Origin: a virus
Reading direction: 5' to 3' (one strand)
IMG/VR virus record: IMGVR_UViG_3300021364_000001
Coordinates: 32,001-96,000 of that record
Length of the DNA stretch: 64,000 nt
In this document: piece by piece, positions 10,420 through 52,274 of the stretch
How positions within the stretch are numbered: the stretch's first letter is position 1
Layout of the letters: each line of letters starts with the position of its first letter
The notes under the pieces: model-generated
Databases searched by the model: none
Seen by the model: the letters and a program-made list of their open reading frames with translations, nothing else
What the model was told of the DNA's origin: nothing
Program-made: the position numbers and the translations under genes

Positions 10420-10491
10420 CTCCCCCTCCTGGGATCGAACCAGGGACCAAACGATTAACAGTCGTTCGCTCTACCGCTGAGCTAAGGAGGA
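10420..10491 (-). tRNA. tRNA-Asn(GTT)
   Basis: TCCTCCT/AGGGGGA acceptor, D arm AGCTCAGCGGTAGAGC, anticodon arm ACGAC-T-GTT-AA-TCGT, GGTTCGATCC T-loop; no encoded CCA. Confidence 0.95.
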
Positions 10492-10496
10492 ACGAG

Positions 10497-10570
10497 AGCC
10501 TGATAACGGACTTGAACCGTTGACCTACGGTTTACAAAACCGTTGCTCTATCCAGCTGAGCTAATCAGGC
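10497..10570 (-). tRNA. tRNA-Thr(TGT)
   Basis: GCCTGAT/ATCAGGC acceptor, anticodon arm ACGGT-TT-TGT-AA-ACCGT, GGTTCAAGTCC T-loop; no encoded CCA. Confidence 0.95.
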
Positions 10571-45549: not shown

Positions 45550-45656
45550 AAGTAAGACCATCAGGGAAATGGTGGAGTTACTATTTCCTCTGCACCCTTA
45601 GCAGAGGACATGAGAGACTGTTATTTAACGACGCTGTTTAGTCTCGGTAAGGCGTC
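45550..45656 (-). ncRNA. PhotoRC-II-like cis-regulatory RNA in the psbA leader
   Basis: GACGC/GCGTC stem whose loop GAGAC pairs with downstream GTCTC (pseudoknot); CCTCTGC/GCAGAGG hairpin; AGTAA..ACCAT-TTCCCTG-ATGGT..TTACT stem. Matches the recalled motif. Confidence 0.7.
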
Positions 45657-45688
45657 GAGATCACGTTACGTTTCGTAACCTGATCATG

Positions 45689-48834: not shown

Positions 48835-48906
48835 TGGGGGATACTGGGATCGAACCAGTGACTTATTGCTTGTAAGGCAACCACTCTACCGCTGAGTTAA
48901 TCCCCC
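48835..48906 (-). tRNA. tRNA-Val(TAC)
   Basis: GGGGGAT/ATCCCCC acceptor, anticodon loop CT-TAC-AA, GGTTCGATCC; no CCA. Confidence 0.95.
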
Positions 48907-48909
48907 ACA

Positions 48910-48983
48910 CGATCCAGGTAGGACTCGAACCTACGACCGACTGCTTAGAAGGCAGTTGCTCTATTCCACTGAGCTACTGGACC
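48910..48983 (-). tRNA. tRNA-Arg(TCT)
   Basis: GGTCCAG/CTGGATC acceptor, anticodon loop CT-TCT-AA, GGTTCGAGTCC; no CCA. Confidence 0.95.
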
Positions 48984-51633: not shown

Positions 51634-51657
51634 AAAAAAAGAGACCCGAAGGTCTCT
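51634..51657 (-). terminator. Intrinsic terminator ending the riboswitch/DUF4278 unit (cUUCGg loop)
   Basis: AGAGACC-TTCG-GGTCTCT-TTTTTT. Confidence 0.88.
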
Positions 51658-51661
51658 CTTA

Positions 51662-51769
51662 TTATTTCTTTGTAGTGCAGTGCCCTGCCATACAAAGTTG
51701 AGCGTCGCGAAGTTTTTTCTTCTTGACTTCTTGCTGTTTGATAACAGTCAGCCAATTAGTTGTCTTCAT
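51662..51769 (-). CDS. 35-aa basic peptide (not in ORF track)
   Basis: MKTTNWLTVIKQQEVKKKKLRDAQLCMAGHCTTKK; ATGA-coupled to the DUF4278-like gene and ends just before the terminator. Confidence 0.6.
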   Translation of the reverse strand: MKTTNWLTVIKQQEVKKKKLRDAQLCMAGHCTTKK

Positions 51770-51906
51770 TTTGTGACCTCCACTTGCTTAGTGTATACCA
51801 TACCACGATAGTTCATGGTTACGGTCTTGGTCTCGTGCTTTTCTTCCTTCTTCTTAGAAGTAGGAACGCCGCGATAAGCAGTGTGGGTGCTGTAAAGATT
51901 CAGCAT
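51766..51906 (-). CDS. DUF4278-like small protein (46 aa; not in ORF track)
   Basis: MLNLYSTHTAYRGVPTSKKKEEKHETKTVTMNYRGMVYTKQVEVTK has two YRG motifs; AGGAG RBS. Confidence 0.8.
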   Translation of the reverse strand: MLNLYSTHTAYRGVPTSKKKEEKHETKTVTMNYRGMVYTKQVEVTK

Positions 51907-51968
51907 GGTTTTAACTCCTGAAATACTAGGGTGTGCTTAACCTTCTCTCCGAAGAGGATCCGTTTACC

Positions 51969-52156
51969 CGTTCCTTCAATCGTTTGCGTCCCAATAGAAC
52001 TCACATTCTGGTACAGATTCCTTTACGGTCTCTATTAGTTCTACCACGACTTCTCGTGGTAGTTCAACCTTGTTTAGTTTGATCCTGAACAGTATTTCGT
52101 CAGCATCAGTACACGCCATGGTCGAATATAGAAGTAGTTCTAACATGGGATGAACG
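51969..52156 (-). ncRNA. Glutamine-riboswitch-like aptamer 2 with an ORF inside P2
   Basis: 5' CGTTCATCCCA (52156-52146) ... TGGGACGCAAACGATTGAAGGAACG (ends 51969). Confidence 0.65.
51976..52146 (-). CDS. 56-aa ORF nested within aptamer 2 (not in ORF track)
   Basis: MLELLLYSTMACTDADEILFRIKLNKVELPREVVVELIETVKESVPECEFYWDAND; GGAG SD 10 nt upstream. Confidence 0.7.
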   Translation of the reverse strand: MLELLLYSTMACTDADEILFRIKLNKVELPREVVVELIETVKESVPECEFYWDAND

Positions 52157-52159
52157 CTC

Positions 52160-52217
52160 CGTTCCGCGATTTACTTGCGTCCTATTCGCTATTCGCAAAC
52201 AACGAATGGGATGAACG
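52160..52217 (-). ncRNA. Glutamine-riboswitch-like aptamer 1 (glnA/Downstream-peptide family)
   Basis: CGTTCATCCC-[10-bp P2 hairpin]-AGGACGCAAGTAAATCGCGGAACG; P1 CGTTC/GAACG. Confidence 0.8.
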
Positions 52218-52232
52218 TGATGTCATACTAAC

Positions 52233-52240
52233 ATGACAAT
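52233..52240 (-). promoter_or_regulatory. Late promoter TATAAATA upstream of the riboswitch array
   Basis: Exact match 16 nt before aptamer 1. Confidence 0.7.
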
Positions 52241-52260
52241 ACTATTTATACAAGTCAAAT

Positions 52261-52274
52261 GTATCACATGTTAC
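52261..52274. promoter_or_regulatory. NtcA box GTA-N8-TAC
   Basis: GTATCACATGTTAC in the intergenic region, 44 nt upstream of aptamer 1. Confidence 0.65.

Follow-up and report, generated by a model that had tools for sequence, protein, structure and literature searches.

A 64,000-nucleotide (nt) stretch of the IMG/VR virus record IMGVR_UViG_3300021364_000001 (hereafter the window), a record which holds a complete 187-kb T4-like cyanomyovirus with terminal repeats, carries on its minus strand an RNA element that is probably one composite riboswitch resembling the type 1 glutamine riboswitch, with the first 5′ arm pairing with the last 3′ arm. Comparative analysis points to a new architecture of this riboswitch, with an interlocked double core and with genes inside its hairpins. 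At the level that such an analysis allows, the RNA is made of two interlocked three-way junctions sharing one helix. The outer core consists of the closing helix P1, the P2 hairpin, the junction ACGCAAGUA, the helix P3 and the junction GAAG. Inside P3 lies a degenerate repeat of the 5′ half, formed by a 5-bp hairpin with GGAG in its loop and by a UCCC/GGGA helix around an open reading frame (ORF) of 56 codons, ORF56. All coordinates of the riboswitch unit (Table 1) refer to the minus strand of the window. Both types of glutamine switch, type 1 (glnA motif, RF01739) and type 2 (Downstream-peptide, RF01704), are ON switches for the translation of DUF4278 genes in cyanobacteria (PMC6212724, PMC6698751).

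A preliminary description of the window had recognized a decamer in two copies, a closure behind each copy and an intact 56-codon ORF within the second repeat, and had taken them for two tandem glutamine aptamers. The elements themselves were all found again and lie far above chance. The decamer CGTTCATCCC occurs exactly twice in the window (52217-52208 and 52156-52147; 0.12 copies expected from shuffled sequences), and GGACGCAA-N9-GGAACG also has exactly two copies (52182-52160 and 51991-51969; expectation 0.00). ORF56 is intact and begins directly after the UCCC of the second decamer, and its end, W-D-A-N-D-TGA, falls within the 3′ core. The 3-nt linker GAG completes a GGAG, and GAACG-GAG-CGUUC can form a hairpin.

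Relatives were collected from IMG/VR by a protein-anchored search with ORF56, which yielded 80 loci, and by a motif search, which yielded further loci. The combined set comprises 162 unique cyanophage modules, 156 with and 6 without an inner ORF. Covariation was assessed in an alignment of 86 sequences, and codon counts of the core alanine in 145 sequences. The central 215 nt of the element (52181-51967) are matched in 361 GenBank cyanophage records; every element is conserved throughout the 162 modules and these 361 records, and none of the modules lacks the arms. In the arrangement of the window, found in 91 modules, the first loop is short and the second holds an ORF. Both loops hold ORFs in 65 modules (in Syn9, gp196 and gp197 occupy the two loops), both are short in five, and in a single module the first holds an ORF and the second is short. 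The relatives with two short loops are the natural counterpart of an in-silico deletion of the ORF.

These ORF-less relatives support the family assignment. With the Rfam cut-offs of 35 bits for RF01739 and 33 bits for RF01704, no match at gathering level was obtained in the window; this had been anticipated, and for RF01739 the window falls below the cut-off because the model cannot span the ORF. The relatives with two short loops score 43.6, 42.9, 40.3 and 38.4 bits on RF01739, above the cut-off. In this alignment the first CGUUCA-P2-GGACGCAAGUA-AGU is joined to the last ACU-GAAGGAACG, and the 38-48 nt in between are treated as an insert in P3. The threshold is passed only when the element is taken as one composite aptamer, since single units reach 24-31 bits: the first unit alone has no GAAG junction, the second alone has neither AAGUA nor P3, and together they make up one complete type 1 consensus. 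Across the core motifs, the window differs from the best-scoring ORF-less relative in one compensated P3 pair and one linker base. Of the type 1 features, a 5-bp P1 of the form CGUUS/SAACG, a variable P2 right after CGUUCA, and P3 followed by GAAG are present. The proposed membership in the glutamine riboswitch family holds, and the covariance model does recognize the natural relatives that are free of the insert, but as one composite and not as two aptamers.

A type 2 identity, with a pseudoknot between CGUUC and a hairpin loop and without P3, was considered and rejected, as the window scores 19.2 bits with the type 2 model and has a covarying P3. The second unit of one relative reaches 34 bits on RF01704, with non-standard pairs in the second stem of the model.

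In the 86-sequence alignment 99.8% of the cells are paired in the nested structure. All four pairs of the helix UCCC/GGGA around ORF56 change on both sides, giving CCCC/GGGG, UCCU/AGGA and, in one relative, GAUU/AAUC, with 99.7% of the cells paired. Across the gene, the first core is connected by P3 with the 3′ core of the second repeat; P3 reads AAUCG/CGAUU in the window and AGUCG/CGACU in relatives. Its second pair is G-C in 152 cases, G·U in 6 and A-U in 4, without any A·C. At the fifth pair, G-C otherwise, a targeted variant scan found A-U (AGUCA/UGACU) in about 22 unique modules, U-A in two and a single mismatch. The closing pair of the inner hairpin is G-C in 72 and C-G in 14 of the sequences and thus always paired. 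The inner junction varies among relatives and the outer junction is invariant, and for this reason we doubt that the inner core binds a ligand. In two loci (L157 and L199) an additional stretch of more than 60 nt separates the first 3′ arm from the second 5′ arm and splits the inner hairpin.

ORF56 is, judged by its codon-level conservation, a real protein-coding gene. Its frame is uninterrupted in each of the 156 ORF-bearing modules, and changes of its length come in whole codons. Differences at the first, second and third codon positions number 5761, 2439 and 8657, respectively, a third-position excess, and the ratio of nonsynonymous to synonymous differences per site (pN/pS) is 0.31 with a pS of 0.45. 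The protein matches phrog_504, a family of unknown function (E 6e-21), and has 154 homologues, all unnamed. An AlphaFold2 model shows a two-helix hairpin with a cysteine at each end (pLDDT 80). Together with the four covarying closing pairs this bears out the proposal that a whole gene sits in a P2-like hairpin of the second repeat. The last codons of ORF56 are constrained as RNA and not as protein. The codon of the core alanine is GCA in 145 of 145 sequences, the alanine codons elsewhere in the ORF being mixed; the codon behind it encodes Asn or His, and in phage S-WAM1 the ORF stops earlier, inside the closing helix, with the core kept. The linker was rightly assigned to the Shine-Dalgarno sequence (SD) GGAG of the inner gene, as GAG(N) is present in 145 of the 156 modules with an inner ORF and in none of the six without. 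In the window (regions 52100-52146 and 51993-52010), the first codons of ORF56 (UAGAACU) can in addition pair with its last codons (AGUUCUA). This pairing extends the closing helix, so that ORF56 folds as a rod in every predicted structure; relatives with 53 codons have no obvious equivalent.

The enclosure of genes is not limited to ORF56. The hairpin that encloses it holds, in relatives, at least six different small families (loci L089, L110, L167, L181, L098 and L138), each with a hydrophobic N-terminus and two cysteines, and most of them end in -DAND because the RNA core is read in frame. L138 has a different arm, and its ORF reads on to a length of 92 codons. The loop of the outer P2 holds an ORF of 65-75 codons in 65 modules, and here the stop codon covaries with the 5′ leader (UCC-UAGGA 24, UCUU-UAAGA 14 and UCUC-UGAGA 11 times, with one clear exception). 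Although outer-loop and inner-loop families share the hydrophobic N-terminus and the two cysteines, a profile comparison between them gave a probability of 5%, which does not support a common origin.

Downstream of the outer core, the bases of the ORF56 stop codon and of the GAAG junction can pair with a strand that runs into the SD of the next gene, ORF46. The third pair of this helix, H7, is G-C in 32, G·U in 28 and A-U in 26 sequences, without mismatch. Of 38 UAA stops, 37 are combined with CUUUAG and none with CUUCAG. A start codon at the position of ORF46 follows H7 by 9-11 nt in 149 of the 162 modules, and H7 is present in minimum-energy or consensus folds of the ORF-less forms. Since H7 uses bases that the outer core needs, the two exclude each other, and H7 is likely the expression platform. 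A DUF4278-like gene had been expected downstream, and ORF46 is such a gene, although its match to the Pfam family remains below the cut-off. In relatives the downstream gene encodes in some cases a clearer TYRGVKY protein and in others a member of a different family. Between outer P1 and H7, the window and a subset of relatives carry an optional module whose hairpin stem covaries (CAGC/GCUG, CUGC/GCAG, CUGG/CCAG, CACC/GGUG) below GNRA or UUCG loops. The flanks of this module, AAACGGAUCC-hairpin-GAGAAGGUUAA, resemble the 3′ half of another aptamer (ACGGA...GAAGG). The second unit together with H7 was also considered as a type 2 switch and was discarded, as the Rfam alignment does not take H7 as a stem.

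The position of H7 invites an explanation without a ligand, in which ribosomes finishing ORF56 would open H7 and switch on the downstream gene, glutamine sensing being vestigial. That the 5′ strand of H7 contains the stop codon of ORF56, that the type of stop covaries with the partner strand, and that most inner ORF families share this stop position together with -DAND would all agree with such translational coupling. However, neither H7 nor any part of the core is lost in the ORF-less relatives, some ORFs (as in S-WAM1) already end within the closing helix, and the bases of the type 1 consensus are invariant. We regard ligand-independent coupling as unlikely.

The preliminary description itself offers a second explanation, namely two aptamers side by side, each with its own P1, of which the first would free the SD of ORF56 upon glutamine binding and the second would control the downstream gene, with GAACG-GAG-CGUUC serving only as the OFF state of aptamer 1. 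Both repeats indeed carry CGUUCAUCC...GGACGCAA...GGAACG, glutamine doublets were taken as separate switches before (PMC9481103), and in an RNAalifold structure of five ORF-less doublets the first two arms are paired with each other. A middle hairpin acting as an expression platform would covary as well. Against this stand the same 14 of 86 sequences in which the inner hairpin closes with C-G: read side by side, they have C·C in one P1 and G·G in the other, whereas the nested pairs are perfect. The mismatches fall on a pair that is Watson-Crick throughout the family. In the 121 sampled Cyanobiaceae genomes, host aptamers occur singly and have a P1 of CGUUG/CAACG, so that the fifth pair is G-C in hosts and C-G in phages and is thus kept as a Watson-Crick pair across the family. 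Outer P1 stays invariant while the inner hairpin flips freely. Moreover, P3, which would lie between the two units, covaries at two positions, and each unit is without part of the type 1 core (24-31 bits against 38-44 for the composite). In the ORF-less forms nearest-neighbour energies prefer the nested over the side-by-side fold by 2-4 kcal/mol. Independent aptamers are improbable. Of what had been proposed, the helix around the ORF covaries as foreseen, but the separate P1s are broken; likewise the GAACG-GAG-CGUUC hairpin can form, but with these P1s broken, P3 covarying and the composite passing the cut-off, it is more readily taken for a part of the fold than for an OFF-state element of aptamer 1. 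The pairing of the first two arms may well exist as a transient, ligand-free state during transcription. A further pairing proposed by RNAalifold, of the second CGUU with the AACG of the inner junction, was dismissed: 26 of 145 sequences read CACG there, which weakens it without compensation.

Another explanation would see the arms as recombination sites for the swapping of small ORF cassettes and the ORF-bearing aptamer as a relic that no longer senses. It would account for the six or more unrelated-looking small two-cysteine families in the same hairpin, for the existence of all four combinations of short and ORF-bearing loops, and for the inverted repeat around the -10 box of the promoter. 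A mere cassette boundary does not explain, however, why the closing helices keep their pairing by compensatory changes after insertion, why core bases are invariant while synonymous sites of the ORF reach a pS of 0.45, why P3 covaries in ORF-bearing modules and why H7 is maintained. This explanation, too, has a low probability in our view. A reading at the DNA level, in which GAACG-N3-CGTTC would serve a dimeric protein as palindromic operator, could cite the symmetric change at both half-sites in one clade. It is very improbable, as it accounts neither for P3, the helices around the ORFs and H7 nor for the agreement with the riboswitch consensus.

Several observations nevertheless weigh against the composite riboswitch. 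Outer P1 is constant in the phages, no variant of either strand turned up in scans for them, and it therefore has no covariation of its own; in addition, it must close over about 245 nt including a translated gene. The outer junction reads ACGCAAGUA where the type 1 consensus has ACGGAAGUA, its C corresponding to the type 2 consensus CGCA, and the 3′ tail reads GGAACGGG, as in type 2. For the window the nearest-neighbour energies of the nested (-90.5 kcal/mol) and the side-by-side fold (-90.3 kcal/mol) do not separate the two, and the unconstrained optimum is a third fold. With the Rfam models, the first unit of the window remains below threshold (RF01704 19.2 bits, RF01739 16.5 bits) and the second gives no match at all. 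The match of ORF46 to Pfam DUF4278 has an E value of 0.002 and 18.9 bits, below the cut-off of 25.3. Under strict consensus criteria, no promoter was detected in the window. In relatives TTGACT-17-TATAAT stands at the same place as the promoter-like boxes of the window and ends 7-8 nt before CGUUCA, so the RNA probably begins with the first P1 strand, a start site derived only from the promoter consensus.

For the composite riboswitch a mechanism can be proposed. Glutamine is quite likely the ligand of the outer core, which it would stabilise. GAAG would then leave H7 and the SD of ORF46 would be freed, turning on ORF46 translation as in the gifB switch; on balance we favour this course. In the folded state the SD of ORF56 would lie in the triloop, and its spacer and the base before the AUG would be paired. 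With SD, spacer and start all paired, glutamine should lower ORF56 initiation, so that inner and downstream genes would have opposite outputs, a step that is possible but that we hold with reserve. Conversely, ribosomes on ORF56 would unwind P3 and cover GAAG and P1, and from this geometry translation and sensing should exclude each other. H7 would be opened, too, by a ribosome that reaches the stop codon of ORF56 and terminates there. The full picture, one sensor with opposite outputs on one mRNA, whose ligand-bound fold shuts the starts of the enclosed genes and opens the downstream ribosome-binding site while ribosomes on the enclosed genes veto sensing, is tentative and somewhat more doubtful than its single steps.

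Table 1. Features of the putative riboswitch unit and its surroundings, numbered by window position.
Feature	Positions	Strand	Remarks
GTA-N8-TAC box (putative)	52261..52274	-	NtcA-type consensus; just upstream of -35 box
Sigma-70-like promoter	52225..52253	-	by consensus; -35 TTGTAT 52253-52248, 17 nt, -10 TAGTAT 52230-52225
Outer P1, 5′ strand CGUUC	52213..52217	-	pairs with 51973-51969; invariant in 86/86, 100% paired with last arm
Outer-core P2 hairpin, UCC...GGA and extended stem	52180..52211	-	no ORF here; covaries in relatives
Outer junction ACGCAAGUA	52172..52180	-	invariant in all relatives including the protein-anchored set
P3, 5′ strand AAUCG	52167..52171	-	pairs with CGAUU 51982-51978 across ORF56
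Inner hairpin GAACG-GAG-CGUUC	52152..52164	-	holds GGAG 52160-52157, SD of ORF56
UCCC, 5′ strand of helix around ORF56	52147..52150	-	pairs with GGGA 51992-51989
ORF56	51976..52146	-	small two-helix protein (model), two conserved Cys; phrog_504; last five codons and stop form the RNA 3′ core
Inner junction CGCAAA	51983..51988	-	in relatives CGCACA, CGAAAA, CGGAAA
P3, 3′ strand CGAUU	51978..51982	-	last base of Asn-55 codon, Asp-56 codon, first base of stop codon
GAAG junction (51977-51974) and outer P1, 3′ strand GAACG (51973-51969)	51969..51977	-	invariant; matches type 1 consensus GAAGGAACG
H7, 5′ strand UUGAAG	51974..51979	-	overlaps ORF56 stop codon and GAAG junction; pairs with 51923-51918
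Optional module AAACGGAUCC-hairpin-GAGAAGGUUAAGC	51935..51965	-	between outer P1 and H7; subset of relatives
H7, 3′ strand UUUCAG (51923-51918), running into SD AGGAG of ORF46	51915..51923	-	by covariation
ORF46	51766..51906	-	DUF4278-like, two YRG motifs; presumed regulated gene; Pfam, phrog_5049, phrog_545
ORF35	51662..51769	-	35 codons, Lys-rich; overlaps ORF46 stop (ATGA)
Intrinsic-terminator-like hairpin	51634..51660	-	UUCG loop and T run, ends unit; terminator scan

The riboswitch unit lies between nrdB (53895-52726) and talC (51596-50934). Its nearest GenBank relative across the riboswitch stretch is Synechococcus phage S-WAM1, with 82% identity. Promoter, switch, ORF56, DUF4278-like ORF46, ORF35 and terminator would follow each other in this order, giving a short transcript with the switch probably at its 5′ end. 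Of 156 related modules, 100 have a GTA-N8-TAC box within 130 nt upstream, in most of them at a distance of 52-60 nt from the first arm; its place at the promoter and its recurrence in relatives suggest host nitrogen control of the riboswitch promoter. A late-promoter-like TATAAATA (52250-52243) overlaps the -35 region. The -10 box is located within a short inverted repeat (52222-52237), which reads GTCATGTTAGTATGAC in the window and GGTCTATAATAGACC in many relatives (e.g., loci L003 and L074); it resembles the mobile promoter-stem-loop elements of T4-type phages, which are linked to gene shuffling. Elsewhere in the window, a PhotoRC-II RNA (45573-45668, minus strand) lies upstream of psbA, a few kb from the riboswitch unit, and two pairs of tRNA genes are found at 48835-48983 and 10420-10570, both on the minus strand.

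Among known systems the phage element is closest to type 1, for example the Synechocystis gifB/IF17 leader (PMC6212724). It shares the CGUUCA-P2-ACG.AAGUA-P3-GAAGGAACG core and the three-way junction, it precedes a DUF4278-like gene, and its presumed inhibitory pairing beside the ribosome-binding site uses the 3′ end of the aptamer; such an inhibitory pairing at the ribosome-binding site was proposed for gifB (PMC6212724). In contrast to type 1, the phage P3 holds a whole second junction, the degenerate repeat, one or two phage hairpin loops enclose complete translated genes, the phage P1 spans about 245 nt in the window and as much as about 480 nt in other modules, a C replaces the G of type 1 in the junction, and the host aptamers in the sampled Cyanobiaceae are single with a different fifth P1 pair. 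In the loci of the best 30 riboswitch matches from these 121 genomes no doublet junction was found beside the match; two pattern matches more than 400 nt away are apparently due to chance. Some host aptamers (loci L301, L306 and L311) carry a P3 hairpin of about 50 nt, and P3 thus tolerates inserts in hosts too. With type 2 (PMC6698751) the element has in common the junction CGCA, the GGAACGGG tail, the marine picocyanobacterial setting and the DUF4278 genes; unlike the phage element with its covarying P3 and GAAG junction, however, type 2 is a pseudoknot without P3.

A 2022 review counts 157 glutamine doublets, treats them as separate, pseudo-cooperative switches and mentions neither nesting nor an ORF in an aptamer (PMC9481103). 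The phage element resembles such doublets in its two aptamer-consensus repeats a few bases apart, but the repeats are interlocked and not independent, with the first 5′ arm pairing with the last 3′ arm and with a shared P3. Glutamine riboswitches in T4-like cyanophages have been mentioned in general terms (PMC9964418), and a survey of 2017 listed only two glutamine aptamers in cyanophage genomes (PMC5473149). Full-text literature searches returned no description of a riboswitch aptamer that encloses a gene, or of glutamine aptamers nested in one another, in agreement with the preliminary description, whose author knew of no account of the arrangement.

ORFs within structured RNAs are known from homing-endonuclease genes in the loops of group I introns and from the attenuator of the trp leader. 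As there, a peripheral loop tolerates a whole gene, and translation of an inner frame would compete with alternative pairings. Here, however, the structured RNA is a predicted metabolite-sensing aptamer, and the inner products are conserved proteins of 53-75 residues, neither leader peptides nor mobile endonucleases. Aptamers are regarded as compact non-coding domains, whereas this fold would close around complete conserved genes, with compensatory changes between leader and stop codon about 200 nt apart. For a riboswitch such a layout is without precedent; it is widespread, can be tested directly and, if true, would link metabolite sensing to translation in a new way. The comparison also suggests that glutamine doublets may be interlocked and not independent.

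With 361 GenBank cyanophage records against the two aptamers counted earlier (PMC5473149), the view that phages rarely carry riboswitches has to be revised. A putative nitrogen-responsive unit of the phage, with its NtcA-type box, the predicted glutamine sensor and an IF17-like protein, may act on the host glutamine synthetase in infection. If the proposed mechanism is true, the riboswitch would be a gate working in both directions between the metabolite level and the traffic of ribosomes, timing a nitrogen-related operon during infection in hundreds of cyanophages.

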